A stretch of 64,000 nucleotides of DNA, taken from the NCBI GenBank assembly GCA_030610885.1, contig JAUWQW010000001.1, forward strand, positions 5,317-69,316. The letters run 5' to 3'. Under the pieces are notes generated by a model. It was given only the letters and a program-made list of their open reading frames with translations, searched no databases and was not told where the DNA came from. Below, piece after piece: positions 1,430 to 55,735 of this stretch; within the stretch, counting starts at the first letter, position 1; every line of letters starts with the position of its first letter. Origin of the DNA: Candidatus Aminicenantes bacterium (lineage in GTDB: Bacteria > Acidobacteriota > Aminicenantia > UBA2199). The translations under genes and the position numbers were made by a program.

Positions 1430-2530
1430 ATGAGTGGAATTATGGTTAAAAATATAACCAAAAAATTCGGTGATTTTGTTGCAGTTAATAATGTTAGTTT
1501 TGATGTTAGAGAGGGTGAACTTGCTGCACTTTTAGGACCAAGTGGTTCAGGGAAAAGTACATTATTAAGGGTTATAGCAGGACTGGAAAACCCAGACATG
1601 GGGCAGATTTTTTTGACAGGAAAGGATGTTACTCCATTGAGAACACAAAAAAGAAATGTGGGTTTTGTTTTTCAACATTATGCACTTTTCAAACATATGA
1701 CAGTTGAAAAGAATATTGCATTTGGCCTTGAGATTCAGAAAAAAGACAAAAAAGAGATAAAACAAAAGGTAGAAGAATTAATTGATCTTGTAAAACTTAA
1801 TGGTTACAACAAACATTATCCTTCACAGCTTTCAGGAGGGCAGCGTCAGAGAGTAGCACTTGCAAGGGCACTTGCTACAGAACCAAAAGTTCTTCTTCTT
1901 GACGAACCCTTTGGTTCTTTGGATGCTAAGGTAAGGAAAAACCTGGCTCAATGGATAAGAGATTTGCATAGCAGGGTTAATGTAACAAGTGTTTTTGTTA
2001 CACATGATCAGAACGAAGCTATAGAAATTTCTGATAAAATTATTGTAATAAATAGGGGAAAGGTTGAGCAGATTGGCAATGCAACTGATGTTTATGAACA
2101 TCCTAAATCAAAATTTGTTGCAAGTTTTGTGGGAAATGTAAATGTGATTAATGCAAACATTAAGAAAAATTATATTGTAATTACAGGAACAAAAGAAAAA
2201 ATACAATTTAAAGAGAAAACAGGAATTAATTTTCAGAACATAGTGTTGCTTATTAGGCCAGAAGATATCATTATAAAGGATAATTCAACAGAGGATACTG
2301 TGCCTTGTATTATTAATGGAATATATTATAGAGGAAGTTTCTATGAGGTTGATTTAAAAGTCGGCACTAATAATGTGAAATCACTTGTCCCTAAAGAAAA
2401 TTTTTTTAAGTTCGAATGGCAGAAAGGGGAAAAGGTATATGTCAGGTTTAGAAAATTTAAAATATTTGAAGCTTCTGAAGGTCACAAAAAGGTTCATGAA
2501 ATGCTCAAGCAACTGGGCTATATTGAATGA
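1430..2530 (+). CDS. cysA: sulfate/thiosulfate ABC transporter ATP-binding protein CysA
   Basis: Walker [13 protein letters not shown] signature [15 protein letters not shown], Walker B LLLDEPF, and a C-terminal TOBE-like extension. A Shine-Dalgarno sequence AAAGGAGAG lies 8-16 nt upstream of ATG 1430. The N-terminus [24 protein letters not shown] is CysA-like. The track ORF extends upstream to 1400, but 1430 is the likely start. Confidence 0.85.
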
Positions 2531-2602
2531 AATCTAAAACACTCTTTTTTTGTTCCAAAATTAAGGTTTTATATTATATTAATAATTATTAAAAAAATTA
2601 TA

Positions 2603-2620
2603 AAAATCATCTGTGATTTT
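2603..2620. terminator. weak AT-rich hairpin between convergent cysA and the anti-sigma gene (possible bidirectional terminator)
   Basis: Inverted repeat aaaatca-tctg-tgatttt inside the 123-nt convergent intergenic region. The stem is only 7 bp and AT-only. Confidence 0.25.
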
Positions 2621-2653
2621 ATTTGCAATTATGATTAATACTATTTTTTTTTA

Positions 2654-3346
2654 TTAAATCTTATTGATTTTTTCTAGGATAGATTCGGCTTTTCCAGAAT
2701 AGGGACTGAACATTTTGGAGAGATTATTAAATAATTTTATTGCTTCTTTCTTTTTATTTAACCTTAAAAGAGCAATTCCTTTATAATATATTGCTTCATC
2801 ATAATAAGAAGGATTAGCATTTTTTATGATTAAATTAAAAATTTTTATGGCATTTTTATATTGATCATTTAATAGATAACAGATTCCTTTGAAAAACAGT
2901 ACTTTAGGGTTATTATCAATGAATTTAATTTGGTTTAGAGTATGAAGGGACTTACTAAACTTTGTGTTATTGTAATAAATCATTGCTTGAGAAAATAACT
3001 CATTACCTGATTGGTTTCTGGTTTCACTCTCTATATACACGGGAGGTGTGAAATATGAAATTTTCAATAATATATGTTTCTGATTAGATTCTTTAATTAT
3101 AAAAATAGATGATATTAGTATTATTAAAAAAGATGAGAATATTAGTAATGGTTTAAAAACCAATCTTGGTTTTTTGCCTCTTAAGACAATTTTAACCCTT
3201 TTTTTATTTAATTTTTCATTTAATTTTAATTCAAGGTAACATTTATCACATTCAAAATAATGCTTTTCAAATTTTTCTTTTTCTTTTTCACATAGTTCTT
3301 CTCTCAAGTAACTATCAATAAGAATTGAGAATTTCTTACACTCCAT
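2654..3346 (-). CDS. anti-sigma factor, zf-HC2 zinc-finger N-terminus, one TM helix, periplasmic TPR domain
   Basis: From the internal Met the protein starts MECKKFSILIDSYLREELCEKEKEKFEKHYFECDKC. HYFECDKC is the H-x3-C-x2-C motif of zf-HC2 anti-sigma factors. A hydrophobic TM segment follows (LLIFSSFLIILISSIFII), then TPR-like repeats (AIYYKGIALLRLNKKKEAIKLFNNL). The start ATG at 3344-3346 overlaps the sigma gene stop (3336-3338) by 11 nt. The track ORF extends to 3394. Confidence 0.7.
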   Translation of the reverse strand: MECKKFSILIDSYLREELCEKEKEKFEKHYFECDKCYLELKLNEKLNKKRVKIVLRGKKPRLVFKPLLIFSSFLIILISSIFIIKESNQKHILLKISYFTPPVYIESETRNQSGNELFSQAMIYYNNTKFSKSLHTLNQIKFIDNNPKVLFFKGICYLLNDQYKNAIKIFNLIIKNANPSYYDEAIYYKGIALLRLNKKKEAIKLFNNLSKMFSPYSGKAESILEKINKI

Positions 3347-3926
3347 TTTTTCTTCTCCATATACTATATAGATCTTTTTGTTTAAAAATCTCATTTTTTA
3401 TTTTTTTTAATGCCCTTATCTTTCTAACACTAATATAATGCTTTGATTTACCTAACAATTCTGCGATTTCATCAATTTTATTTTCTTTTAGATAGAATTC
3501 CTTTAAAATTATTTTATCGAGTTCAGAGAGTTTGTTGACAAACTTATTTATTATTTGAGTCATATTTTCTGATTCGAGTCTCTCGTTCTCTTTCAAATTA
3601 TAAGATAATTCAATTGTTTGACTGAATTTTTTTTGGATGTTTATATTTTTCTTTTTTTTATAGAAATAATTGTACAAGACTCTTTTTGAAATCCCGAAGA
3701 TATATGGAGCTATATATTTATCATCAATAATTTTGTTATTCTCAATTCCATTAAAAAAAGCAGCGAAAACTTCCTGGACAAGATCTTCGTGAGAGTTTTC
3801 TCCTTTTACCCTGCATCTAAAATATGAAAAAATTCTAGAATTAAATCTATTTATTAGTTCAACCTGAATATTTTTTTCCTTATTTTTTAATCTTTCAATG
3901 CAACTTTTATTTTTTGTCATTGTCAC
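3336..3926 (-). CDS. RNA polymerase sigma-70 factor, ECF subfamily
   Basis: Region 2 (HEDLVQEVFAAFFNGIENNKII..YIAPYIFGISKRVLYNYF) and region 4 helix-turn-helix (FYLKENKIDEIAELLGKSKHYISVRKIRALKKIK) are present. Size is 196 aa. It sits directly upstream of, and overlapping, a zf-HC2 anti-sigma gene. Confidence 0.8.
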   Translation of the reverse strand: MTMTKNKSCIERLKNKEKNIQVELINRFNSRIFSYFRCRVKGENSHEDLVQEVFAAFFNGIENNKIIDDKYIAPYIFGISKRVLYNYFYKKKKNINIQKKFSQTIELSYNLKENERLESENMTQIINKFVNKLSELDKIILKEFYLKENKIDEIAELLGKSKHYISVRKIRALKKIKNEIFKQKDLYSIWRRKNGV

Positions 3927-4315
3927 ATAAAATTTTTCTCCATAGAATTATTTATATAATTTGATTCAGGAATGGTTTTTTCTCTATTTATCTCTACTTT
4001 TATATTTAGGCTGGGTTGAGCTCTGAAGTTTGTTTTAAAAAAGATTGTAGAATTGTTTGTAAAAAGTTTTTTGTCTATATATTTCAATTTATATTCCGCT
4101 CTTTTTAATTTATTAATATATATTGTTAGAAAGATAATTTCATTTAATTCTGGCTTGATTTGAAAGTTAAAATTTGAGTTATTATTAATTTTTATATAAA
4201 TGAATTTATCTATATGTACCAGAATGTCAGTGACTTTAAAATCTGGAAGGTTATTAGAGAAAATTCCTATTGTAATACTTCCAATTAAAATTAAAAAAAT
4301 TATTATTCTTTTCAT
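3923..4315 (-). CDS. hypothetical exported protein, first gene of the sigma/anti-sigma operon
   Basis: 130 aa with an N-terminal signal/TM segment (MKRIIIFLILIGSITIGIF). Its stop overlaps the sigma-factor ATG (ATGA at 3923-3926), which indicates translational coupling. Confidence 0.45.
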   Translation of the reverse strand: MKRIIIFLILIGSITIGIFSNNLPDFKVTDILVHIDKFIYIKINNNSNFNFQIKPELNEIIFLTIYINKLKRAEYKLKYIDKKLFTNNSTIFFKTNFRAQPSLNIKVEINREKTIPESNYINNSMEKNFM

Positions 4316-4399
4316 AATATTTATATATATGTTTTTATCTAAAATTTCAATATTTTAATGAGTTGAATTCTTTTTTTTTTTAGTTTAAAATTACAATAA

Positions 4400-6082
4400 A
4401 TGAGATTTGGGAGAATGTTTTTCTTATTATTTTTTTTCTTTTCTATTATTTTAAGTGGAATAAGCATAGATCAGAATAGTTTAGAGAAAAATGTAAAAGA
4501 ATCAAATAAATATTTTTCTGATACAAATGATAGCAGATATTACTATATTTCTGAAAGAATAGAAAATATTTTTTCAAGCATTATAAGATATTTTCTTTAT
4601 TTATATGATAAAACTTGTAATAAGATATTTATAGATAAAGCTCTTTATTTTAGTGAGATAAAAAAAATATATATATATAATTTAAATTCCAAAAAAAATA
4701 AAATAGATTTACTTTTTAATATAAATATTAATATAAATAAAAATGGAAAGGAATATTTTTTAATAAATAATAAATATTTGAAAAATTTATTAAGTTTAAA
4801 TTTTAGTAAAGACAAAATTAGCTTTTTTGAAAATAAACTAAATTCGTTGAATAAGGAATATTTAGAATTGATGAAACTTATTTCAGATATTCCAATTACA
4901 CTAAGATTCAAAGATTTTAATACAAAACTAATTCAAAAAAGGATGAATCCAGGTCAGTTGATAATAAAATATACTGTTTTAAAAGAAGATGTTTTTGCTT
5001 TTTATATTACTAATAAATCTATAGGTTATATTAAGCCAAAAGTTAAATATAATCAAATTTTCAAGAAAATAAAGGATCTAACTGAACCTCTTGATGATTT
5101 TAAGAGTGGTAATGTTGATTATTTAAGAATTAACTATAACCTAAACATTGCAAATTATCTATACAATATACTTCTAAGGCAAGTATTAAAAAATCACAAA
5201 AATATGGAAGAGATTTTTATCATTCCAGAGAAGGAATTATTTAAACTGCCCTTTGAAGCCCTGGTAACAGGTTTTAATGATAAAGATTTAGATCCTGAAA
5301 TTATATTCTCAGAATATAGATCTGCTAACTACTTAATACAAAAATTTACAATTTCATATTATTTTTCTCTTTTTGATATTCAAAAAAGGTTCAAAGAAAA
5401 ATACAGGAAGAAATATATTGTTACTGCATTTGGAAATCCAGTAATTGAGGATAGGCTGAGAGAAAAATCAGAGAGTATGCTAATAAATTTTAAATACTTT
5501 AACAAGATTCCCTCTTCAAGAAGAGAAATACTTGATATAAAAAGAATATTTGTTGGAAAAGAGTGTAAAATTTTTTTGGATAAAGAATTTAATAAGAGAA
5601 ATTTTGAAAGTTATGCGTCTGAGTCAAAAATAGTGCATATAGCTACACATTTCATAAATAATATTGATTTTCCTAAATATTCAGCCTTGCTCTTTTCATC
5701 AAAAGATAATAATACGCCTTTTTATTATACTTATGAAATATCTGAGTTAAAATTGAATTCTGCATTGGTGATACTAAGTGCTTGTGAAAGTTTGGAAAAG
5801 GATATACTTGGTTTAAACGGATTAAACAGTATAAGTTTTTCATTCAAAAATTCAGGTGTTAAATCTGTTATAGTGAGTATGTGGCCAGTTGATGAGTTTA
5901 GTTCAAAGTTAGTACCATTGTTTTACGAAAATTATAAAAGAGCAAAAAAATTTTCTTTAGCATTAAGGAATGCTAAACTTAAGTTAATGAAAAAAAATAT
6001 AAAATTTAAAGAAGATATAAAAATTTCACTTTCTCATCCTTTTATATGGGCAAATTATATTCTTTACAATTTTTATTTTTAA
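4400..6082 (+). CDS. secreted CHAT-domain (caspase-like, clan CD) protease
   Basis: N-terminal signal peptide (MRFGRMFFLLFFFFSIILSGIS), then an N/K/I-rich low-complexity N-terminal half. The C-terminal approximately 350 aa have the CHAT pattern: IFIIPEKELFKLPFEAL, YIVTAFGNP, IVHIATHF (catalytic His), LSACES (catalytic Cys), GVKSVIVSMWPVDEFSSKLVPLFYEN. Confidence 0.7.
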   Translation: MRFGRMFFLLFFFFSIILSGISIDQNSLEKNVKESNKYFSDTNDSRYYYISERIENIFSSIIRYFLYLYDKTCNKIFIDKALYFSEIKKIYIYNLNSKKNKIDLLFNINININKNGKEYFLINNKYLKNLLSLNFSKDKISFFENKLNSLNKEYLELMKLISDIPITLRFKDFNTKLIQKRMNPGQLIIKYTVLKEDVFAFYITNKSIGYIKPKVKYNQIFKKIKDLTEPLDDFKSGNVDYLRINYNLNIANYLYNILLRQVLKNHKNMEEIFIIPEKELFKLPFEALVTGFNDKDLDPEIIFSEYRSANYLIQKFTISYYFSLFDIQKRFKEKYRKKYIVTAFGNPVIEDRLREKSESMLINFKYFNKIPSSRREILDIKRIFVGKECKIFLDKEFNKRNFESYASESKIVHIATHFINNIDFPKYSALLFSSKDNNTPFYYTYEISELKLNSALVILSACESLEKDILGLNGLNSISFSFKNSGVKSVIVSMWPVDEFSSKLVPLFYENYKRAKKFSLALRNAKLKLMKKNIKFKEDIKISLSHPFIWANYILYNFYF

Positions 6083-6144
6083 TTAATAAAATTGAGATTT
6101 TTTTTATTTTCTTTTATTTAATATATTAGTAAGGGAGGTGTTAA

Positions 6145-8481
6145 ATGAAAAAATTTTTTCTACTATTTTTTATTTTCTTTTTATTTTTAAATCTACAATC
6201 AACAGATATAAATATTAATCCGAATCAGATTTTTGTTGGAACTAATGTTCAATTTGATTTTATTCATTCTAATATAAGTTCAATATTAAACCCTGAATGG
6301 AATTTCGGAGATAATAGCCCTAAAGCAAATGGTATATCAACAAATCATTTTTATAAAGAACCTGGCAACTATACTGTAAAATTTACCTGGTCTGAAGAGG
6401 GTGAGAATAAGGAAATCACAAAAAATATAGTAGTAGGTGATAATAGAGAAGTATCAATTGAGGGGAGTGATTTTTTTGTTGGAAGAGTTATACAGTTTAA
6501 GACAAAAAATTTTGCTAGAAGTAATTTGAAGTGGGATTTTGGTGATAGTACAATTGAAAATGCCGAGAAAAATCATAAACATAAATTTCAAAATCCAGGG
6601 AATTATACAATCAAGGTTTATGATTTTGGAGGAAATACATCTTTTGCAGTAACCTGTAATGCGAATATTCAACCAGATACCAGGAGGGTTGATATCAATC
6701 CTTCAAATGTTGTAGTAGGACAGACTGTAACAATAAAATTGATAAATTCTATGGCTACAGATGTGGAATGGAACCTTGATATGGATGTTATATTGAAGAA
6801 TTCTCCCACTATAATACAGTATAAATTTCTAGATCCTGGGAAATATGAGATTATTTGTATGATACCCAATCAGACCCCAGTAAAAAATGTTATAAATGTA
6901 AGAGAAAATAGAAGCATTGATTTAACTCAGAAATATGTGTTTGAGGGTTCAAATGTTAAATTTAGAACAAAAAATTTTAATTCTTCTAACCTGAAATGGA
7001 ATTTTGGTGATGGTACTATACAAAGTGGAGGGCAAAATGTTTCCCATATGTTTTTAAGACCAGGAAATTATTTTGTGAAAGTCTTTGATTTTGATGGAAA
7101 ATCAAAGAAGCCTGTTCAAAAGAGATTAAATGTGTTAAGAGAGAACAGAAAAATTGATTTAAAGTACCAGGTTTTGTATATAAGTTCAGAGGTTGAGATA
7201 AGAGCAAAGGATTTTAAAAGCAGTTCAATTAAATGGGATTTTGGTGATAGCAGTACACGAATGGGAAGCAACTTGATCAAGCATATTTATAAAAGAATCG
7301 GGACTTTTACAATAAAGGCAATTGATATGGGAGGTAAAGACACAAAAGAAATAATAAGACAGGTCAATGTTATTAATGATAATAGAATAATTCAATTACC
7401 TGTAGAGATAATTGCAGGTGAACCTGTTGATTTGCAACTACAGAATGCAGAAATGGGTAATTTTATATGGGAATTTAGAGATAATGAGAAAAGATCTGGA
7501 AACTTTGTGAAATCTAAAAATTTCAAATTTCCCGGTTTTCAGACAATAAAAATTGTTGATAAATCTGGTAAATATCCTGACCTTATAAAAAAGATAGATG
7601 TAAAACCAGATAAAAGAAAGCTAAAAAGTTTAATAGATTACAGCCTCCCAAATGAGACAATAAACTTTGAAGCTTTTAATTTTAAGGGGCCTGGAATTAA
7701 ATGGGATTTTGGTGATGGGACAATAAAAGAAAATGGAAATAGAAATGAAAAGCATAAGTACAGATCAATTGGGAAATATAAGGTTAAAGCAATTGATTTC
7801 AATGGTAAGAGTGCTAAGGTTTTTTCAAAAGATATATATATTAGTGAATTGTTACCTGACTTTCAGGTAAAAAGTATAGAAATTGTATTTGACAATGGGA
7901 AATATTATAGAGTAGTCCCGAAAAGAAATATGCCACCTGATTATAGTGTTAAAATAAAAGCAAAGGGAAGAGGAATAATAAAGGGTAAATGGATTCTTGA
8001 TGGTATGACTGTCGGGCTTTTTGAAATAAAGTTGAAAGAGAACCAGATAAATGTTATAAAAGGGAGAAATGTCCCAAAATTGCCTGTTATTGATTTAGGT
8101 GTCCATAATTATACTTTTGATTTTACAAATTATTCATTTAATGGGGAAATACCTAGATTAAGATATTTTGTGACTGAATCAGGAATGCTTCAAATTAAAA
8201 ACCCATTGCCTGGAGCAAAAATTCCTGAGCAAAAAACAATAAAATTAAAGTGGTCATCAGTAAAAAGGAAAGTATCCTATGAAATTGTTGTCTCTAAAAT
8301 TCCTTTTCAATTCCTGAAAGACGAACAGATTAAGTGGATTAAGCTTGAGCAAAAAAAAGAATTCAATCTTGATTTATTAAAGTATAAAAAAAATACATGG
8401 ATTTATTGGATGGTAAGAGCAGTTAATGAAAATGGTAAAGTGGTTACTACTTCTGAGCCTTCATCATTTAAAATTTTGTGA
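6145..8481 (+). CDS. secreted multi-PKD-domain protein (approximately 7 PKD repeats) with a conserved C-terminal module
   Basis: Signal peptide MKKFFLLFFIFFLFLNLQS. A Shine-Dalgarno sequence AAGGGAGG lies 7 nt upstream. There are about seven 80-88-aa repeats, each with the PKD signature W(D/N)FGDG(S/T) (WNFGDNSP, WDFGDSTIE, WNFGDGTIQ, WDFGDSSTR, WDFGDGTIKE and two degenerate copies). The C-terminal region (DNGKYYRVVPK..GIIKGKWILDG..LPVIDLGVHNY..WIYWMVRAVNENG) is shared with the gene at 10511. Confidence 0.75.
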   Translation: MKKFFLLFFIFFLFLNLQSTDININPNQIFVGTNVQFDFIHSNISSILNPEWNFGDNSPKANGISTNHFYKEPGNYTVKFTWSEEGENKEITKNIVVGDNREVSIEGSDFFVGRVIQFKTKNFARSNLKWDFGDSTIENAEKNHKHKFQNPGNYTIKVYDFGGNTSFAVTCNANIQPDTRRVDINPSNVVVGQTVTIKLINSMATDVEWNLDMDVILKNSPTIIQYKFLDPGKYEIICMIPNQTPVKNVINVRENRSIDLTQKYVFEGSNVKFRTKNFNSSNLKWNFGDGTIQSGGQNVSHMFLRPGNYFVKVFDFDGKSKKPVQKRLNVLRENRKIDLKYQVLYISSEVEIRAKDFKSSSIKWDFGDSSTRMGSNLIKHIYKRIGTFTIKAIDMGGKDTKEIIRQVNVINDNRIIQLPVEIIAGEPVDLQLQNAEMGNFIWEFRDNEKRSGNFVKSKNFKFPGFQTIKIVDKSGKYPDLIKKIDVKPDKRKLKSLIDYSLPNETINFEAFNFKGPGIKWDFGDGTIKENGNRNEKHKYRSIGKYKVKAIDFNGKSAKVFSKDIYISELLPDFQVKSIEIVFDNGKYYRVVPKRNMPPDYSVKIKAKGRGIIKGKWILDGMTVGLFEIKLKENQINVIKGRNVPKLPVIDLGVHNYTFDFTNYSFNGEIPRLRYFVTESGMLQIKNPLPGAKIPEQKTIKLKWSSVKRKVSYEIVVSKIPFQFLKDEQIKWIKLEQKKEFNLDLLKYKKNTWIYWMVRAVNENGKVVTTSEPSSFKIL

Positions 8482-8573
8482 AATGTTGAATTCAAACTTA
8501 AATAAAAAAGTTATTTTAAAATTATGTTGAAAATTTTTATATATAATATAATTATATGATTAAGGGGGAAAAT

Positions 8574-10502
8574 ATGAGGAAAATCGTTTCTGTCTTTATA
8601 TTTATTTTTTTATTTATTAATTCTTCTGTTTTGTTTTCAAAATCATTTTCACATTCAAATTATCTACCAAAAATAATAAAATCTTCTAATAAGTTAGTTA
8701 TAGAAATAGATATTTTAAGCAACAATGGGGATTTTTTTATATATTATAAAACTGAAGGGTTAAAAAATTATCAGATTAGAAAAATGAAGAATGATAAAAA
8801 TGGAAAGGTTTATTATCAATTATCCTTAAAATACCTTTATGGTAAAGGTATTGAATATTTTATTGTTAATAATGGGAATAAAGATTCAAATTCTATTTCA
8901 CCTGTTTTTACTTTCCATAATTTCACAACAAAAGAATCCCCTGAGGTTTACTTTACAAGTGAAGACTCGCAATCTACAACTTCTTCAAAGAAAAGAGAAC
9001 CTCTTTTGAAATTTCAAGGCTCATTGTCAACCGCTTCCCGTTTACATGATACTTCAGATTACCCGGGAGAGAAATTCTCTGCCAATGCCAATATGAGAGT
9101 TTATAAAAATATTAATTCAGAAAAATATCAATTTGATTTTGATTCTAACTTTACTTATATGAACCATGTTTCAGATAAAGAGAAAAAAATAAATCTTACA
9201 AGCATGATGATCAGATATAAAAGGGGAAGCCATAAAATTGAGGCTGGTGATGTTAATGTGTCATCAAACAATCAATTGGCAATGGCTGGAATTAATAAAA
9301 GAGGCTTAAATTACGAATTTAAAAGTAAGAATTTTTATTTAAATTCATTTTATACAAATTCTCAGCAGAAAACAGGGTTCGATGGCTTTGGAATCCCTTC
9401 TTCTAATGCAAGTCTTTTTGGAACAACAATTGGATTTGATATTGGTAAGACTTACAATGAAATCATTAAAATAAGGGGATTATTTTTAACAGGAAAAGAT
9501 GATCTTGATAGTAAAACAGTGGTCTCTTCGGAAGAACCCTTTAGAACAGGAAATATGTATTCTTTTTGGGGTGAGTTAAGTCCTTTTAAGAGTTATTTGA
9601 AAATATTTGGAGAGTATGCTCACTGTAATTTTGGTAAAGGACTTGATAAAGAGAGTTTAAATAAAGAGAAAGATAATGCATGGAGAGCTGGGGGTAATTT
9701 TAATTATAAAGTATTGTCTGCCAGTGTAAATTATAATAAAATCGGCAGTAAGTTTAATTCTATTGCAAATCTATTTATGCAAAATGATAGAGAGGGTTTA
9801 AGCAGTAATGTTATGTTAAATATAAAAACATTTTCCTGCAGTCTAAATTATGTAGATCAAAAAAGTTATATGGAAAGCCCGGTCCAGCCTGAGCTACATT
9901 CAAAAAATTTGATGGCAAATTTCAACTGGTTAATTGCAAATCACATAAAAATAGGAGCAGAATATGGAAAAGATAATCTAGATTATGATGAATCTACAGG
10001 ATTACAGACTGGTGGAAGTGATATGGACACATTAAAGTATGGAGCAACTCTTGGATATATTGCAGGTTCTAATGGAATAAATGTAAGGATCGGTAAAACC
10101 GAGTCTAAAACCTTTACTTCCAATATTGATGCATCTGTTTCTATTAACCTGAGGCTTGGAAAATTTCTGAGTTTTAACCCCACATTCTCATATCAAAATA
10201 CAAAAAATTTAGCTGACAACAGTACTTCTAAAATTTATAATATCTATTTAAATTCGGAACTCAGCTTTATTCCTCAATTATTCACATTATCAATTTCAGG
10301 TTCTTATAATAAAAATAAAAGCACTTCTAATGAATCAGAATCTCTTACTGCAAATGGAAATTTTAATTTTTATATGGCAAAAATATTTAAGAATAAGATC
10401 CAGCCTATACTGTCTATTAGAGCAAAGTATCAGGAAACAAAATATGGAGGTACTAAGACAGACAGTGTGGCTTTATATCTACATTTTGATCTTTCATTTT
10501 AG
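8574..10502 (+). CDS. outer-membrane beta-barrel protein (predicted)
   Basis: Signal peptide MRKIVSVFIFIFLFINSSVLFS, with a Shine-Dalgarno sequence AAGGGGGAA 4 nt upstream of ATG 8574. The protein is long, with alternating amphipathic stretches, and ends in ...LHFDLSF with a C-terminal Phe, which is typical of beta-barrel outer-membrane proteins. It lies 8 nt upstream of the second PKD gene. The track ORF starts at 8556. Confidence 0.5.
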   Translation: MRKIVSVFIFIFLFINSSVLFSKSFSHSNYLPKIIKSSNKLVIEIDILSNNGDFFIYYKTEGLKNYQIRKMKNDKNGKVYYQLSLKYLYGKGIEYFIVNNGNKDSNSISPVFTFHNFTTKESPEVYFTSEDSQSTTSSKKREPLLKFQGSLSTASRLHDTSDYPGEKFSANANMRVYKNINSEKYQFDFDSNFTYMNHVSDKEKKINLTSMMIRYKRGSHKIEAGDVNVSSNNQLAMAGINKRGLNYEFKSKNFYLNSFYTNSQQKTGFDGFGIPSSNASLFGTTIGFDIGKTYNEIIKIRGLFLTGKDDLDSKTVVSSEEPFRTGNMYSFWGELSPFKSYLKIFGEYAHCNFGKGLDKESLNKEKDNAWRAGGNFNYKVLSASVNYNKIGSKFNSIANLFMQNDREGLSSNVMLNIKTFSCSLNYVDQKSYMESPVQPELHSKNLMANFNWLIANHIKIGAEYGKDNLDYDESTGLQTGGSDMDTLKYGATLGYIAGSNGINVRIGKTESKTFTSNIDASVSINLRLGKFLSFNPTFSYQNTKNLADNSTSKIYNIYLNSELSFIPQLFTLSISGSYNKNKSTSNESESLTANGNFNFYMAKIFKNKIQPILSIRAKYQETKYGGTKTDSVALYLHFDLSF

Positions 10503-10510
10503 GAGGAACT

Positions 10511-12523
10511 ATGAAAAAGATATTAATTGTATTATGCTTTTCTTTTCTATTTTTAAATTTGTACTCAATAGAAGTAACCCCAACAGCGCCTTATTATGTT
10601 GGGAATATATTAACTTTTAGCCCAACCAATCCAGGTTCATGGAAGGGTAGACCTGTAAGGTGGATTTTTGGAGATGGAAATTCAATGCAGGTAACAGGAA
10701 GTCAAAGTGTAACTCATTATTATAAAAATCCAGGAACATATACTGTAATGTTGGTAGATTTGACTGCTACCACGACTCCAAATCCAACACAAACACGTGT
10801 TATTACAATAGATGAGGATCGAAATATTCAGATCTCAACTTCCCAACCTTATGTTGGTCAACAGATTACTTTTACAGCTATTAATTTTAATACTCCTTCA
10901 GATATTTTTTGGGAAATGGGAGATGGTACTACTTATTCCAATCAAAGCAGTATAATTAATCACACATTTTCAAATGCAGGTACATATATTGTAAAAGCAT
11001 ATGACTGGAATGGAGACACAACAACAACACCTGTAACAATTACTGTAAATGTTACTCAACCTGCTCGTAGTATTCGTATTTATTATACTTCGCAAAGCCC
11101 AAGAGTTGATCAACCAATATGTTTTGAGGCACAAAATTTCATTACATCGAGCATAGACTGGAATTTTGGTGACGGGCATGTTGTATATGGAGGAAGCGTA
11201 AAACAGACACACAGATATCAAAATCCAGGTACTTTTACAGTCACTGCAAAGGAAAATTTAGCAACAGGTCAAGGGCTTATAACTACAAGCATTACAATTT
11301 TGCCAGAAAACAGATATATTACAGTTTCTTCGCCTGAAGTGCGTATAAATGAAGAGGTTGCAATAACTGTATATAATTTTAGAGGAGATTATATATGGTG
11401 GGATTTTGGAGATGGAACACAAAAATCAGGATTACATACAGAAAGATATACTTATAGAAGATCTGGAAATTTTACTATAACAGCTCAGGATGAAAACGGA
11501 GAGAGCCAGAAGAAATTTCAGGTAAATATTATTGTAAGAGGTATTGATGATATTGTTAATATTGGAATAGCAGAGATTAAACTGGATAATGGTAAGTATT
11601 ACAAAGTTATTCCAAAAAATTCTAAAAATATTCGTGCTGTTTTGAGGATGAAAATGAGGGGTACTGGTATTGTATCTGGATATTGGATTGTAGATGGTAA
11701 TCCATATGAGTTTTTTAATGAGGTTGCTCTACAGGGAGAGTTAAAAGAGATTTATACTAAAGATGTCCCGGGACTTCCTGTTTTAGAATCAGGGATACAT
11801 ACAATAACTGTAAAATTAACAAAACCAGTTGAAGTTCCAATAACATTCCCTGTATTAAAATATTTTGTGCTCCCTTATGAAAACAAAGTTGAAATTTTAT
11901 CTCCTGATGATGGATATGTGACAAAAGAAAAAGATATTCCAGAATTTTCATGGAAAGAGCCTAAAGGTGGTTCAAAGTATAAGATTGCCTTTTCAGACTA
12001 TTTGTATCCTATATTATATAACACTAATAGACTGAAATGGATCGATGTTAATGTAAAATTGAATTATAAACCGGAACCTGATGTTTGGAAGGACATTAAA
12101 CGAAACAGATGGACATATTGGAAAGTTAAGGCACTTGATAGTAACGAGAATATAATAGCTGAAAGTGACATTCAGGATATAAAGATTGTAATAGCTTCAG
12201 CAGAGATAAGTATTAGTAAGATTACAGATCTTGATGGAAATGAGATACAAATTAATAAGAATATAAATTCTGACAAAGAGGACATTTTAGTATACGGAAG
12301 TGTTAAATACAAGGGTGATTCAAAATATCTTATACTAAGGGTTTATGCAGATAATGAACTTGTAGATCAGCTTCTTTTTAGAGATGTAAAAAAGAATGAA
12401 GAGAGATTATTTGAAACCTCAATTCCAAATAAAAAGAAAGATACTAAAGTGATATTTCAAGTTCTTAACACATCTTCTCCATCAGTTATTATAGGTATAA
12501 AAAATCTGTTTCTAAAAAAATAG
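10511..12523 (+). CDS. secreted multi-PKD-domain protein (4 PKD repeats), paralog of the gene at 6145
   Basis: Signal peptide MKKILIVLCFSFLFLNLYS. A Shine-Dalgarno sequence AGGAGG lies upstream. PKD signatures are WIFGDGNS, WEMGDGTT, WNFGDGHV and WDFGDGTQ. The C-terminal module (DNGKYYKVIPK..GIVSGYWIVDG..LPVLESGIHT..WTYWKVKALDSNEN) matches the 6145 protein. Confidence 0.75.
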   Translation: MKKILIVLCFSFLFLNLYSIEVTPTAPYYVGNILTFSPTNPGSWKGRPVRWIFGDGNSMQVTGSQSVTHYYKNPGTYTVMLVDLTATTTPNPTQTRVITIDEDRNIQISTSQPYVGQQITFTAINFNTPSDIFWEMGDGTTYSNQSSIINHTFSNAGTYIVKAYDWNGDTTTTPVTITVNVTQPARSIRIYYTSQSPRVDQPICFEAQNFITSSIDWNFGDGHVVYGGSVKQTHRYQNPGTFTVTAKENLATGQGLITTSITILPENRYITVSSPEVRINEEVAITVYNFRGDYIWWDFGDGTQKSGLHTERYTYRRSGNFTITAQDENGESQKKFQVNIIVRGIDDIVNIGIAEIKLDNGKYYKVIPKNSKNIRAVLRMKMRGTGIVSGYWIVDGNPYEFFNEVALQGELKEIYTKDVPGLPVLESGIHTITVKLTKPVEVPITFPVLKYFVLPYENKVEILSPDDGYVTKEKDIPEFSWKEPKGGSKYKIAFSDYLYPILYNTNRLKWIDVNVKLNYKPEPDVWKDIKRNRWTYWKVKALDSNENIIAESDIQDIKIVIASAEISISKITDLDGNEIQINKNINSDKEDILVYGSVKYKGDSKYLILRVYADNELVDQLLFRDVKKNEERLFETSIPNKKKDTKVIFQVLNTSSPSVIIGIKNLFLKK

Positions 12524-21683: not shown

Positions 21684-23321
21684 TTATTTTCCCATTTCTT
21701 CAATGCGTTTTTTATCTTCTTCTCTTTGAATTTGTCTTTTTCTTAATTTTTGGAATTGTTCAATCATCTCTTTATATTTCATATCCCATTCTTTACTTTT
21801 TAAGGGCTCAGTTATTTTCTTCTGATAATAAAGCAAAGCTTTATAAGACCATGGGAATGGATTTGATGGGTTAAATTTAGTGGATTTATCAAGTGCAGCA
21901 AACCCCTTGGCAATAAGGGGACGCCTCTCTTCATCTGACATTTCATCAGGTTTTGTCTGGTAACTTTTGTTCCAGCAAACATGTCCAACTCTATAATAAG
22001 CATCAGCTAATAATTTTTTCTTTTCTTCTGGGGAATTTATACTCTCTTCTTCTGATTTTTTTATTAGTTCTTGAAATTCGTTTTTCTTGATTTCTAATTC
22101 TTTATTAGCATTTTCTAAAGAGCCCATTTCTTCTAATTGTTTTGTTTTTTCCTTCATTAGTTTTGCCTTAGCTTCTTTTGGCAGGGTTCTATTCTTCCTA
22201 AGCACATTTTCAATGAAATCTTTGATCTTATTTATATCTTCAATTTTTTGTTCAATTTTTTCAACCTCTTTTTGTAGATCCAGGGTTTCAGGATTCAAAA
22301 TAGTATAGATTCTTTTTTCATGATATTTTATTGCTTTGTTCCATTGTCTTGAATCTCCATAATATTGTGCTAAAAACAGGTATGCTTGAGGGTTCTCAGG
22401 AGTCATTTCAATTGGTTTTTTATACATCATTTCAGCTTCAGTAAGTCTTCCATGATTTAAATAAAAATGAGCTAAAGTATAATAAGATTGAGGGTTAGTT
22501 TTGGCATTCTCTAAGATAGTTAGATAACATTTCTCACTTTCTTTATAATAGTTTTCCCTTTCTTCTTTTGTCTCTGTAGCTGATGATATTCTGTCATAAA
22601 TATCACCAAGAGCTAAAACGATTTTTTTATTATTTGTAGCTTCATCTTTAAGTGGCTCTTTAAATTTTTCTGGTAAATATTCTCTTATTTTTTCATTAAA
22701 CTCATGATCTGCCTTTTCTTTAATATCTTTTTTCTTATTATTCAGGCTATTTGTTAATCTTTTTTGAAGATTTTCTATCTCTGAATTTATTTCTTCCTTA
22801 ATTTCAGGTTTGGCTTCTTGTTCTGCCTTTTTTTGCAGCTCTTCAATATTGCTGTTATACATCTGTTTTGTCTCTTCTATGGTTTTTTGCTCAATTGGTT
22901 TATACTTTAATTCAATCTCTTCTCTGATATTATCTCTTTTTTCCTGGTTTATGCTATTTATTGCTTTATTTTCTAAATCTTCAATTTTTTTATCAGAAAA
23001 TTCTCTTGCTTTAAGCAAAAAATCTAAGGCGTTTTTACCATTTTCTTTATTTTTTTCCGTGGTCTTTGATGGATTATAAAGTAAAGCATAGCTTGAGCCG
23101 ATATAGAAATATGCTACTTTAAGGTCAGGATTAAGTTCCAGTGCTTCATGGTACTCATTTATTGCTTTTTTATATTTTTCCTCTGTATAAAACGTATTTG
23201 CTTTTTTTAGATGATTGTTTGCTTTCAAGTTATCTATTTTTAGTTTTTCACACCCTGAAAAACTGGTTATAAAAAATGCGGATAAAGTTAGTACTAATAG
23301 AATTAATAAAATTTTCTTCAT
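21684..23321 (-). CDS. TPR-repeat lipoprotein with coiled-coil region
   Basis: Signal peptide with lipobox (LTLSAFFITSFSGC). TPR repeats are present (YKKAINEYHEALELNPDLKVAYFYIGSSY, AYLFLAQYYGDSRQWNKAIKYHEK). There is a long charged coiled-coil middle region. Confidence 0.6.
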   Translation of the reverse strand: MKKILLILLVLTLSAFFITSFSGCEKLKIDNLKANNHLKKANTFYTEEKYKKAINEYHEALELNPDLKVAYFYIGSSYALLYNPSKTTEKNKENGKNALDFLLKAREFSDKKIEDLENKAINSINQEKRDNIREEIELKYKPIEQKTIEETKQMYNSNIEELQKKAEQEAKPEIKEEINSEIENLQKRLTNSLNNKKKDIKEKADHEFNEKIREYLPEKFKEPLKDEATNNKKIVLALGDIYDRISSATETKEERENYYKESEKCYLTILENAKTNPQSYYTLAHFYLNHGRLTEAEMMYKKPIEMTPENPQAYLFLAQYYGDSRQWNKAIKYHEKRIYTILNPETLDLQKEVEKIEQKIEDINKIKDFIENVLRKNRTLPKEAKAKLMKEKTKQLEEMGSLENANKELEIKKNEFQELIKKSEEESINSPEEKKKLLADAYYRVGHVCWNKSYQTKPDEMSDEERRPLIAKGFAALDKSTKFNPSNPFPWSYKALLYYQKKITEPLKSKEWDMKYKEMIEQFQKLRKRQIQREEDKKRIEEMGK

Positions 23322-26691: not shown

Positions 26692-28245
26692 TTATAAAAA
26701 ATCTTTGAATTTTATATCGTAAGTTTTAAATGTTCTTGCAAGAATCTTATTAATTTTAGCTAATGTTTGGTTATAATTAATTATAGATTGTAATGCATTT
26801 GTTTGAGCTGTAGCGTATTGACGTTGATATGTTAATACTTGGAAATTTGTTGATAACCCGACTGAAAGTTTTTTCTCTTCAGCTTTGAGTTTTTCTTTTT
26901 CTAATTTCAATGCTATTTCATTTGCTATTACCAATTTGAGGTTTGTTTGAATCTCTTTTATTGCTTGTTTTACCTCAGAATATATATTGTTTTCAACCTT
27001 TTCTAAGTTTAAAAGTGACCTTTTCATGTTGATCTTGGCCTGAGCAAATTGAGCTTTTTCTTTTGAAAAGCTCAAAGGAACAGATAGTTTGAGTCCAAAT
27101 GAGTAATTTTTGTATAAATTGGAAACAGTGTCTTTCATTGAATCCCATATATCTCTTTTAATTGCACCTATAATTTCTCTCTCTCCAGTAAATGGGTTGC
27201 CAGGGCCATATATTATCTGAGTTCCTCCCTGTCCTGTGGTGTAATAGGATGCTGTTAATTGTAGATCAGGCAGCATCTGGTTTCTTGCATATTTAACCAA
27301 TATGTTATAATTTTTTAAATCTAATTTTGATTGTTCAATATCAGGTCTATTCTGCAGGGCTTCAAGTAAAAATTCATTAAGATCAGTTTCTGTTGTTTTA
27401 ACTTCAGGTATATCAGAAGGGATAATTGTTTTATCCTGTTTACTTAGATTAAGAATCTTTTTCAGGTTCTCTTCAGCTGTTTGAATTGATTGTTCTGCTT
27501 GAATTAACTGACTTTCATATGATGCAACATCTGCTTTTGCTTCAAGTATATCGATTGGAGCTGCAATTCCGACTTTCACCTTAATTTCATTTTGTCTTAA
27601 AAGATCTTTTGATCTTTGCAGGGCTTTTTTCTTGGCATCAAGGTTCTGATATGTATAGACAAGGTTCCAATATGCATCTTCAACACTGTAGATAAGATTC
27701 AAGATATTTTCTTTTAATTTGTATTTATTTATTTTGTAATTATTTGCAGCAATATATATATCTTTTTTTGTTGAGAAAGTACCAAATCCTTTTAAAAGGG
27801 GTTGTGATAGGGAAAATGTTAAACTTGAATATAAACTTGGATTTATTGTAGAATATATACTGTTTGTCTTATAATTAGTATTACTTAAATTAATGTTTAA
27901 CACACCTCCCAATGCTATTTTCTGTTCTAACCCTAGATTTAATGATGAGCGTTCATTCGTTTGAATATCAGCACCTCCAAATATGTCAGTACTAGGTCTG
28001 TTTGTTTCTGTGCTGATTACATCTACTGTAAATTTAGGTATAAAAATTGAATCATCTATCTTTAAAGTTTCCTTTGAGTATTCCATGTTGGTTTTTTCAA
28101 TCTTAAAATCAAGGTTATTCTCTAATGCCTGATAGATAGCCTCTTTTAAAGAGATTTTATCTGTTTTGTTTTCAGCCTTTATAGAAAAACTGAATAAACT
28201 GAATAAAAGGGTTATTAGTAATATTACTTCAAATGATTTTTTCAT
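26692..28245 (-). CDS. TolC-family outer membrane efflux protein
   Basis: Signal peptide. Two tandem outer-membrane efflux protein repeats with coiled-coil and beta-strand alternation (LKEAIYQALENNLDFKIEKTN..., LNEFLLEALQNRPDIEQSKLDLKN). 517 aa. Confidence 0.75.
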   Translation of the reverse strand: MKKSFEVILLITLLFSLFSFSIKAENKTDKISLKEAIYQALENNLDFKIEKTNMEYSKETLKIDDSIFIPKFTVDVISTETNRPSTDIFGGADIQTNERSSLNLGLEQKIALGGVLNINLSNTNYKTNSIYSTINPSLYSSLTFSLSQPLLKGFGTFSTKKDIYIAANNYKINKYKLKENILNLIYSVEDAYWNLVYTYQNLDAKKKALQRSKDLLRQNEIKVKVGIAAPIDILEAKADVASYESQLIQAEQSIQTAEENLKKILNLSKQDKTIIPSDIPEVKTTETDLNEFLLEALQNRPDIEQSKLDLKNYNILVKYARNQMLPDLQLTASYYTTGQGGTQIIYGPGNPFTGEREIIGAIKRDIWDSMKDTVSNLYKNYSFGLKLSVPLSFSKEKAQFAQAKINMKRSLLNLEKVENNIYSEVKQAIKEIQTNLKLVIANEIALKLEKEKLKAEEKKLSVGLSTNFQVLTYQRQYATAQTNALQSIINYNQTLAKINKILARTFKTYDIKFKDFL

Positions 28246-55709: not shown

Positions 55710-55735
55710 AATAGAGAATTTAATACGAAGAATGT

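Follow-up and report, generated by a model that had tools for sequence, protein, structure and literature searches.

The window, which here means the whole analysed stretch of 64,000 nucleotides from a Candidatus Aminicenantes bacterium, harbours a gene for a CHAT protein at 4400-6082 (+). The open reading frame codes for 560 amino acids, its stop codon being included in these coordinates. Upstream, on the opposite strand, a sigma operon is found; downstream, on the same strand, an operon for PKD-repeat proteins.

The sigma operon begins with a gene (3923-4315, −) for a small exported protein of 130 amino acids. Its AlphaFold2 (AF2) model (pLDDT 90) is a CARDB-like β-sandwich, the best folds in the PDB being the CARDB structures 3idu and 2kl6 (E about 9e-4). 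A common 'LPDF-V' start had made the protein a candidate relative of a domain of the PKD proteins; the idea was abandoned after an insignificant hmmsearch. The second gene (3336-3926, −) encodes an ECF sigma factor, which matches TIGR02937 (sigma70-ECF) with 61 bits at a cut-off of 42.9 and contains Sigma70_r2 and Sigma70_r4.

Then follows a Class-I zinc-binding anti-sigma factor with a CHCC motif (2654-3346, −). The preliminary description of this DNA had placed TPRs here, and rightly so: the gene, as open reading frame 2654-3394 (−), shows a zf-HC2 match, one transmembrane segment (residues ~79-101 of 246) and C-terminal, i.e., periplasmic, TPRs. By comparison with homologues, whose first residues are MKCxEF, translation probably starts at M17 of that frame; C19/H45/C49/C52, the ligands of the CHCC motif, are conserved. 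Next to the membrane, on the periplasmic side, an alignment of 30 anti-sigma factors revealed the motif F-x-P-P-[VL]-Y-x3-E-x-R-[GN] (FTPPVYIESETRNQ; 3011-3052, −), in which the Arg is invariant. The anti-sigma factors of two further loci, L042 and L043, have a similar x-T-R-[GS] after the transmembrane segment. The motif might be a site of recognition or cleavage. Separase, a relative of the CHAT proteases, cuts after the Arg of ExxR (PMC11506125), a specificity that resembles E-x-R-[GN].

The downstream operon (6145-12523, +) comprises a first PKD-repeat protein (PKD1, 6145-8481), a protein of 648 amino acids (8556-10502) and a second PKD-repeat protein (10511-12523), the repeats being recognized by Pfam. 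The 648-residue protein ends in ...LHFDLSF and is called a putative outer-membrane protein by its signal peptide and this C-terminal pattern only. NCBIfam holds no specific family for it, for the 130-residue protein or for the CHAT protein. A TolC-like OEP encoded at 26692-28245 indicates that the envelope is diderm.

The CHAT protein

The protein matches the Pfam CHAT family PF12770 with E = 1.2e-43 and 150 bits, the curated cut-off being 24 bits. The match is full-length: residues 250-556 (5147-6067, +) correspond to positions 3-287 of the 289 of the profile. In the AF2 model (pTM 0.79), pLDDT exceeds 90 across most of residues 170-560, and the confident caspase-like fold begins at about residue 175-186, thus earlier than Pfam's 250. 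It occupies residues ~175-560 (4922-6079, +). The C-terminal 350 or so residues had already been assigned to CHAT; the identity stands, the extent has to be corrected to about 385. When the model was compared to the PDB by Foldseek, Csx29/TPR-CHAT ranked first (5e-14), followed by DdvA (2e-10), separase (1e-8) and caspase-8 (8e-4); two of the top matches, Csx29 and separase, are the structures against which the domain was to be aligned.

At the sequence level the relatives are harder to find. A single-sequence phmmer search of the PDB yielded nothing useful and a profile of the whole family was dominated by generic TPR matches; DdvA and Sb TPR-CHAT were reached by a CHAT-only profile alone. 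Similarity to DdvA is confined to the active half (31 bits). There, His417 (HIAT-H-F, codon 5648-5650, +) and Cys462 (LSA-C-ES, codon 5783-5785, +) coincide residue for residue with H862 and C907, the named dyad of DdvA (PMC11506125), and they also align to the CHG and GACE motifs of Sb TPR-CHAT. H413, H417 and C462 are invariant in family alignments of 42 and 16 sequences. The catalytic residues previously read from IVHIATHF and LSACES are therefore confirmed as family-invariant and as lying on the DdvA positions. Judged by its sequence, the gene is that of a CHAT caspase-like protease with an intact predicted dyad, H417/C462.

The N-terminus looks like an export signal, as had been proposed. 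Heuristic analysis of residues 1-22 (4400-4465, +), MRFGR plus a hydrophobic stretch, finds two positive residues, some 16-18 uncharged hydrophobic ones and a candidate cleavage site between G-I-S and I-D-Q. The same pattern recurs in 54 of 72 family members starting with Met. A heuristic scan for further membrane-spanning segments in the protein was negative. Whether the predicted signal is cleaved or stays as an N-in anchor, the CHAT domain should be extracytoplasmic.

The N-terminal half had been considered unusual and of low complexity. It is neither. Its content of N+K+I is 40%, compared to 38% in the sigma factor, 44% in the small protein and 35% in the anti-sigma factor, and the DNA around the locus has 22-25% GC. 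Residues 29-558 align to about 313-851 of homologues of 850-950 amino acids, with identities of 34% (46-98), 24% (99-169) and 46% (170-249) in the N-terminal half. Residues ~42-165 (4523-4894, +) form what we call the pre-CHAT module: in the AF2 model, two confident long helices at 42-97 give way to a variable linker, also helical. The long forms have the homologous segment right behind their TPRs. Among 1.84 billion representatives the module gave only 22 matches, each just ahead of a CHAT core. The N-terminal half is an ordinary helical module, conserved and lineage-specific, of a genome very rich in AT. This is a likely trap for annotators, since conserved modules in AT-rich genomes can resemble low-complexity sequence.

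The long homologues, from Aminicenantes and Acidobacteriota (e.g., P0008 and P0013), are annotated merely as 'CHAT domain-containing protein'. They are true homologues, with 45-50% identity over residues 29-558, and share the pre-CHAT module, the dyad, the signal peptide and often the same sigma/anti-sigma and PKD neighbours. They differ by some 300-400 extra N-terminal residues with TPRs, whereas in the short, 560-residue form the signal peptide directly joins the pre-CHAT module. Pfam indeed detects no TPR in the latter at E ≤ 0.1, in line with the preliminary description; ahead of CHAT the AF2 model retains a helical remnant of about 120 residues. The TPRs of the long forms stop exactly where the alignment to the short form starts, so that their pre-CHAT module sits between TPR array and CHAT core. 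In the trees, the short form nests inside long-form clades, which means secondary loss of the TPRs. The 560-residue protein is a derived, TPR-deleted form of ancestral Aminicenantes members with an additional N-terminal TPR array.

This history bears on the proposed split sensor/protease, in which the TPR sensor that CHAT usually carries would have moved onto the anti-sigma factor. A CHAT protein devoid of Pfam TPRs next to an anti-sigma factor that has them, both presumably periplasmic, invites such a reading. At eight loci (L013, L016, L028, L030, L031, L033, L034 and L041), however, TPRs are present on both proteins; the notion that TPR-less CHAT is restricted to loci where the anti-sigma factor brings the TPRs is thereby rejected. 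Nor are the anti-sigma TPRs specifically similar to the CHAT arrays (all E > 0.05), which also disposes of their homology, and with the short form nested within the long ones the anti-sigma TPR is older than the loss. Relocation is thus very improbable. As an evolutionary statement the proposal is contradicted; it could survive only in a functional sense, the anti-sigma TPR compensating for the lost one. What did hold up is a functional coupling of the two proteins, supported by their linkage at 31 of 36 loci (see below).

Linkage, promoters and the downstream operon

CHAT lies beside an ECF sigma factor and a zf-HC2/TM/TPR anti-sigma factor in 31 of the 36 loci of uncultured Aminicenantes with enough flanking sequence. 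These are genomes of distinct species, and their CHAT proteins span 32-98% identity. Five related loci (L002, L005, L012, L037 and L039) have CHAT without an adjacent sigma factor. In Calditrichaceae (Calditrichota) and KSB1, the components are arranged as a co-directional operon, sigma → anti-sigma → CHAT, and CHAT there has a C-terminal transmembrane anchor, which puts it at the membrane. The link between CHAT and the anti-sigma factor is thus no coincidence of this window, and a functional coupling is supported. The pairing with a membrane signalling switch, the ECF sigma/anti-sigma pair, in about 30 related uncultured bacteria suggests that CHAT is probably the protease that operates this switch.

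The CARDB-like gene is distributed differently: every one of the 23 short-form loci has it, as do two of nine long-form ones (L016 and L010). One may ask whether the CARDB-like protein is the primary partner of CHAT, being either its substrate or an inhibitor in the manner of securin; the pair would sense the signal and pass its output by binding to the anti-sigma TPR, the anti-sigma factor itself staying uncleaved. TPR domains are generally binders of peptides or proteins. That the small gene is the first of the sigma operon and that its product is a confident exported β-sandwich would fit. It is missing, however, from L042 and L043 and from the basal long-form clade, which has sigma, anti-sigma and CHAT, and hence is not essential to the core mechanism; moreover, phylogeny explains its distribution as well as function does. 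We regard this possibility as improbable.

The promoters, which are assigned on consensus alone, fall into two classes. CHAT has a sigma70-type one (4363-4391, +), consisting of TTGAAT (4363-4368), a 17-nt spacer and TAAAAT (4386-4391). It ends 8 nt before the ATG, which makes the transcript near-leaderless, and TTG(A/C)AA-N17-TATAAT is kept upstream of CHAT in 16 of 16 aligned loci. A conserved sigma70-type promoter of its own suits a constitutively present upstream protease better than an output of the sigma factor. A classical ECF promoter (AAC...CGT) is absent from the divergent intergenic region; sigma70-like and GAGAT elements are found there instead. The GAGAT elements make up the second class, nnGAGAT-N17/18-TATnTA. 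In the window, one of them, TTGAGAT (6092-6098, +), precedes the PKD operon. Its position is fixed at 45-51 nt before the ATG of PKD1 in 8-9 of 10 loci. In the type-A loci, about 20 in number, which have CHAT and the sigma module but no PKD genes nearby, it is found 34-35 nt before the start of the sigma operon. By chance, 0.12-0.16 such elements are expected per region. The bare hexamer TGAGAT occurs no more often in the window than expected (53 versus 55), and only occurrences at a fixed position carry weight. A single genome (L016) has the element at both operons; in the window, the copy before the sigma operon is degenerate.

In 13 other loci, too, the PKD operon lies downstream of CHAT, in the order CHAT, PKD, ~640 residues, PKD, with short gaps and on one strand, and in L005 it follows CHAT with no sigma factor within 10 kb. 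PKD proteins are therefore candidate alternative substrates. Type IX secretion may offer an analogue, the clan-CD enzyme PorU working with PorV. By that analogy, CHAT would act in the envelope on the PKD surface proteins, as their maturase or in the manner of a sortase, together with the putative outer-membrane protein, and the part of the sigma/anti-sigma pair would be no more than to control the surface operon. Heuristics see export signals on all four products. The type-A loci, however, do without the PKD genes; the promoters of CHAT and PKD1 are separate and of different kinds; and Pfam and NCBIfam show neither C-terminal domains of the type IX kind nor homology to PorU or PorV. We consider this explanation unlikely.

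A putative site-1 protease and its known relatives

In our main reading, CHAT would work in trans in the periplasm, as a DdvA-like site-1 protease that cuts the anti-sigma factor. We put the probability of this reading at roughly 45%. CHAT would meet the TPR/juxtamembrane region of the anti-sigma factor in the periplasm and, upon some envelope signal, clip the periplasmic part, possibly at the conserved E-x-R-[GN], the candidate point being the bond between FTPPVYIESETR and N. This cut would license an RseP-type intramembrane cleavage and thereby release the sigma factor, which would then transcribe from GAGAT-type promoters, in the window that of the PKD/outer-membrane/PKD operon. The CARDB-like protein might be a co-sensor, an inhibitor or a substrate. 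The whole arrangement would correspond, divided in trans between two polypeptides, to DdvA of Myxococcus, where anti-sigma, TPR and CHAT form one chain.

Several observations argue for the site-1 reading: the dyad, the export signal and the topology of the anti-sigma factor (N-terminal zf-HC2, one transmembrane segment, C-terminal TPR); the 31/36 linkage and the independent gene order in which Calditrichaceae and KSB1 have the three components; the precedents of DdvA and Csx29 for CHAT acting on sigma control; the sigma70-type promoter of CHAT as opposed to the position-fixed GAGAT before sigma and PKD operons; and the juxtamembrane motif with its invariant Arg, the residue after which separase cuts. 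Against it stand that cleavage of the anti-sigma factor is pure inference, that dyad mutants of DdvA had no phenotype under the conditions tested (PMC11506125), that the five related CHAT loci lack an adjacent sigma factor, that in one of them, L005, CHAT is nevertheless followed by the PKD operon, and that GAGAT is found at both operons in L016 only and is degenerate before the sigma operon of the window. A wider claim can be made only tentatively, namely that Aminicenantes, Calditrichota and KSB1 share a class of envelope signalling that spans several phyla and has not been described before, in which a trans-acting CHAT site-1 protease would cut after the Arg of E-x-R-[GN] and the sigma factor would drive a PKD/outer-membrane operon via GAGAT.

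To our knowledge, CHAT proteases are abundant in bacteria and substrates are known for only a handful of them. Both characterised prokaryotic cases, craspase and DdvA, feed into the control of sigma factors (PMC10028731, PMC11506125), and both are related to defence. Could the module then regulate an anti-phage defence island, as DdvA/DdvS does? Hardly. PADLOC found no defence families among seven module proteins, only weak generic sigma matches, the locus is bordered by housekeeping genes (sulfate ABC transporter, radical SAM, CysS, PurL, UvrD, SMC and Ffh), and the putative regulon consists of PKD/outer-membrane proteins. The defence-island reading was rejected on the first two grounds, and we consider it scarcely credible.

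The nearest relative in organization is DdvA/DdvS of Myxococcus xanthus (PDB 8ROT/8RW5). DdvA is a CHCC anti-sigma factor that bears a periplasmic TPR-CHAT part, for which self-cleavage at site 1 ahead of RseP has been proposed; autoproteolysis is unproven, and such anti-sigma factors were found by the authors only in Myxococcota and one Comamonas (PMC11506125). Both systems have an adjacent ECF sigma factor (in the window in one operon with the anti-sigma factor), a CHCC zinc-binding single-pass anti-sigma factor, a periplasmic TPR and a CHAT domain with a His-Cys dyad, the location being predicted for the window. The differences are obvious. In the window, CHAT is not the C-terminus of the anti-sigma factor but a separate exported protein without a TPR array of its own, and its chain has neither zf-HC2 nor an internal transmembrane segment, which, like the TPR, belong to another gene, on the other strand; the periplasmic part of the anti-sigma factor comprises only about 145 residues of TPR; a CARDB-like partner is added; the context is housekeeping genes and a PKD/outer-membrane operon instead of the CBASS/CRISPR island of DdvA; and the host belongs to the Aminicenantes, not to the Myxococcota. 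With protease and putative substrate on separate polypeptides, the CHAT-as-site-1-protease idea, unproven for DdvA, would become amenable to a direct test in vitro. If the mechanism is true, the two-protein version is also the easier one experimentally, since enzyme and substrate can simply be mixed.

Csx29 of the type III-E craspase (PDB 8EEX, 8D9F, 7Y8T) provides the best structural matches (Foldseek 5e-14 to 1e-12), and the dyad motifs align. Its substrate Csx30, which it cleaves, inhibits an ECF-like sigma factor (PMC10028731). Csx29, however, is cytoplasmic, is activated by RNA via Cas7-11 and has a TPR array, whereas the CHAT protein of the window carries an export signal. No Cas7-11/gRAMP, Csx30/Csx31, CRISPR array or other cas context was detected, either among the module proteins (by PADLOC) or in the parts sampled from the rest of the window.

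DegS and PrsW perform on RseA and RsiW, respectively, what is proposed here for CHAT: they remove the ectodomain so that S2P can act (PMC11506125, PMC10028731). Their fold and class are unrelated (serine or metallo proteases versus a clan-CD cysteine protease), and their genes do not usually neighbour those of the sigma/anti-sigma pair. Separase shares the fold and the His-Cys dyad and cleaves after Arg in an acidic motif (cited in PMC11506125). In contrast to the CHAT protein of the window, it is eukaryotic, cytoplasmic or nuclear, huge and regulated by securin; the relationship is one of fold only, not of sequence.

In the literature searched, no paper pairs 'CHAT domain' with 'Aminicenantes', and CHAT goes unmentioned in the main text of the ECF re-classification paper. 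Here, about 30 uncultured species, as well as members of two other phyla, have separate genes for an ECF sigma factor, a zinc anti-sigma factor with a periplasmic TPR and a periplasmic CHAT protein. If the proposed mechanism is true, caspase-like site-1 proteolysis is a more general route to ECF activation than currently recognized.

The CHAT domain, its dyad and its predicted export

The open reading frame at 4400..6082 (+) encodes a CHAT protease of 560 amino acids, a bona fide member of its family by every measure of sequence and fold. Its match to the Pfam profile PF12770 (residues 250-556, E=1.2e-43, 150 bits at a cut-off of 24 bits) covers profile positions 3-287 of 289; searches of NCBIfam and PADLOC added no specific family. 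In the AlphaFold2 model (42-sequence alignment, pTM 0.79), confidence is very high throughout the part beyond about residue 170. The best fold matches of this model in the PDB are, in this order, the craspase TPR-CHAT/Csx29 (5e-14 to 1e-12), the Myxococcus xanthus anti-sigma factor DdvA (2e-10), separases (1e-8) and caspase-8 (8e-4). When a CHAT-only family profile is compared with PDB sequences, HIAT-H417-F falls on ...LAT-H862-G of DdvA and LSA-C462-ES on ...LAA-C907-E. H862 and C907 are the catalytic dyad of DdvA (PMC11506125). The family alignments show no variation at H413, H417 or C462. Because of this correspondence and the invariance, the intact dyad H417/C462 is confirmed at the level of sequence, the catalytic histidine being H417, not H413. 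The preliminary description, which had claimed a CHAT domain with an intact His/Cys dyad, was right in both respects.

The sole hydrophobic segment is N-terminal. MRFGR is followed by about 16-18 uncharged residues, and a candidate cleavage site lies between G-I-S and I-D-Q, positions -3 and -1 being occupied by small residues. This n(+)/h-region start is common to short and long homologues; under a strict heuristic it is recognised in 54 of the 72 sequences that begin with M. By such a heuristic reading of N-termini the CHAT domain would be extracytoplasmic, behind either a cleaved signal or an uncleaved N-in anchor; the export signal postulated earlier is thereby borne out as a pattern kept in the family. 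A TolC-like outer-membrane factor encoded in the window is consistent with a diderm envelope.

Origin of the short form

The N-terminal half had been called an unusual low-complexity region. This view fails. N/K/I residues make up 40% of it, compared with 38% of the sigma factor, 35% of the anti-sigma factor and 44% of the small neighbouring ORF, and local sequence entropy is comparable. Since the neighbours are so similar, the bias reads as genome composition, not as a special domain. Moreover, the region aligns to a conserved module of long homologues. The reported absence of TPRs is correct: by domain content the protein is not a TPR-CHAT.

Residues 29-558 align at 45-50% identity with residues ~313-851 of homologues of 850-950 amino acids from Candidatus Aminicenantes/Acidobacteriota, which are annotated merely as 'CHAT domain-containing protein'. 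Pfam TPRs fill the extra N-terminal 300-400 residues of these long forms and stop exactly where the alignment starts. By segment, identity to the long forms is 34% (46-98), 24% (99-169) and 46% (170-249), the last value equalling that of the Pfam core. The model has helices over residues 42-165, with two long ones confident at 42-97, and its beta-rich CHAT fold begins at about residue 186, well ahead of residue 250, where Pfam places it. Residues 23-249 by themselves, searched exhaustively, matched just 22 representatives in 1.84 billion, all directly N-terminal to a CHAT core. In neighbour-joining trees the short clade of the window is nested within TPR-bearing long forms, and at least two further independent short clades are seen. 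From this nesting, combined with the alignment, search and model, we read the protein as a secondary TPR-deletion variant that still has its signal peptide, together with a 'pre-CHAT' module specific to the lineage.

The sigma module, the PKD operon and their promoters

Upstream of the CHAT gene, an operon of three genes runs divergently. Its first gene (3923-4315, -) encodes a small exported protein of 130 amino acids with conserved PDF-V-DI...FRTNFR...ESN-NN motifs. Neither a Pfam match nor a relationship with the PKD proteins was found for it; its model is a beta-sandwich (pLDDT 90) with CARDB domains as best PDB matches (3idu/2kl6, E~9e-4, TM 0.54-0.62). An ECF sigma factor (3336-3926, -; TIGR02937) and a zf-HC2 anti-sigma factor (2654-3394, -) follow. 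The anti-sigma factor has a single TM, with TPRs towards its C-terminus, and its probable start is M17 (nt 3346, codon 3344-3346), which yields 230 amino acids as in its homologues. Its CHCC zinc motif (C19, H45, C49, C52) is conserved, a ligand type reported for DdvA (PMC11506125). The TPRs are predicted to be periplasmic, as is a strongly conserved juxtamembrane motif, F-x-P-P-[VL]-Y-x3-E-x-R-[GN] (3011-3052, -).

On the 3' side lies an operon for a PKD-repeat protein, a 648-aa protein and another PKD-repeat protein (6145-12523, +; PKD by Pfam). Outside their PKD repeats, the two PKD proteins share a C-terminal region of ~200 aa. The 648-aa protein has a signal peptide, no family match and a C-terminal ...YLHFDLSF resembling an outer-membrane beta-signal; it is a putative outer-membrane protein. 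Two more TPR proteins of the window, one of 545 aa (21684-23321, -) and a DUF4388-DnaJ-TPR protein of 477 aa (37898-39331, -), have no obvious tie to the CHAT module. No part of the window is richer in AT than the sigma/anti-sigma/CHAT segment (2001-6000; 22-25% GC vs 26-34% elsewhere), although the GC content drops again, to 23%, at 54001-56000.

We compared 56 related loci, whose ORFs were screened by BLAST and then with HMMs made from the window's neighbours. The sigma/anti-sigma pair adjoins CHAT in 31 of the 36 loci with a CHAT identity of >=32% and enough upstream sequence, and this adjacency is conserved across species and phyla. The window type, short CHAT with sigma module and PKD operon, recurs in L001 and L006. 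Eight loci (L013, L016, L028, L030, L031, L033, L034, L041) combine a long TPR-CHAT with sigma, anti-sigma and PKD operon, mostly without the small protein. The PKD operon is kept in 13 loci besides the window. In L005 a long CHAT is accompanied by the PKD operon only, which would suit a CHAT protease that matures PKD surface proteins, the sigma pair being merely regulatory. Roughly 20 loci, however, have the small protein and the sigma pair next to a short CHAT of ~529 aa without any PKD genes, and we consider such a role, the main alternative to a protease of the anti-sigma factor, rather unlikely. Elsewhere the long CHAT is solitary (L002, L037, L039).

L042 (Calditrichaceae, 1444-6329) and L043 (KSB1, 6453-11254) have ECF sigma, zf-HC2/TM/TPR anti-sigma and TPR-CHAT genes, in this order, in a single operon read in one direction. 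Their CHAT proteins are distant (25-28% identity, ~1044 aa, signal peptide and C-terminal TM anchor), and x-T-R-[GS] occurs near the position of the juxtamembrane motif. In view of these operons and the conserved adjacency, the triad is old and recurrent; long TPR-CHAT with sigma/anti-sigma is its ancestral state. In simple ORF calls, the CHAT frame looks split in some loci (L038 9995-11585, ORFs of 254 and 278 aa) and abnormally extended in others (loci concerned: L038, L032 9908-12490, L022, L036); frameshifts, pseudogenes or errors of assembly may account for this. L002 (CP070627.1, a 9.1 Mb Aminicenantes genome) has its CHAT paralogue, P0013, beside an integrase and a homologue of the small protein, P0106, elsewhere, which suggests several CHAT modules per genome.

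The divergent intergenic region measures ~85 bp, and the window CHAT gene has no Shine-Dalgarno sequence. TTG(A/C)AA-N17-TATAAT ends 8 nt 5' of the CHAT ATG in 16/16 aligned loci; the window's match to this consensus is TTGAAT-N17-TAAAAT (4363-4399, +, up to the ATG). This implies a sigma70-type promoter and a probably leaderless or near-leaderless mRNA. A different element, nnGAGA[TC]-N17/18-TATnTA, stands at a fixed distance 5' of the sigma operon in 16 of 24 loci (those without PKD genes plus L016; L003, L014-L027, L016 etc.) and 5' of the first PKD gene in 8-9 of 10 (window copy 6092-6098), the chance expectation being 0.12-0.16 per region. Because its GAGA is invariant and its first bases vary, unlike a sigma70 -35, it is a candidate promoter recognised by the ECF sigma factor. 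It stays a lead, since both operons bear it in L016 only and the copy at the window's sigma operon is degenerate (TTAGATA).

Possible mechanism and known systems

A split sensor/protease, with the TPRs on the anti-sigma factor, had been envisaged. Functional coupling of CHAT with the TPR anti-sigma factor is strongly supported by synteny. Relocation of the TPRs is not supported: long-CHAT loci with the sigma pair have TPRs on both proteins, the TPR of the anti-sigma factor shares no specific similarity with the CHAT arrays, and in the trees it predates the loss of the CHAT TPR.

Inactivation of a single-pass anti-sigma factor commonly begins when a site-1 protease cuts its ectodomain, and RseP-type site-2 cleavage follows. 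For DdvA, the periplasmic TPR-CHAT is a proposed self-acting site-1 protease (PMC11506125). Csx29 cleaves the sigma inhibitor Csx30 (PMC10028731). By context and precedent, the window CHAT, made constitutively from its own promoter, might act in trans on the anti-sigma factor as a site-1, or signal-processing, protease; the freed sigma factor would then transcribe GAGAT-type promoters, including that of the PKD/outer-membrane operon. To this tentative proposal as a whole we assign a probability of about 0.45.

Apart from the DdvA paper (PMC11506125), our literature search found none that ties CHAT, sigma factor and periplasm together, and the main text of the ECF re-classification paper does not mention CHAT. 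DdvA is described there as the only characterised anti-sigma factor with a TPR-CHAT, its homologues being found solely in Myxococcota and one Comamonas (PMC11506125). Taken alone, we rate the window protein as an ordinary CHAT family member; the module as a whole carries the new arrangement. In contrast to DdvA-type anti-sigma factors, the CHAT chain has neither ZAS domain nor TM; in contrast to craspase, it is predicted to be exported and has no cas context. The synteny proved robust, and having protease and presumed substrate on separate chains makes a site-1 step of the DdvA type testable.
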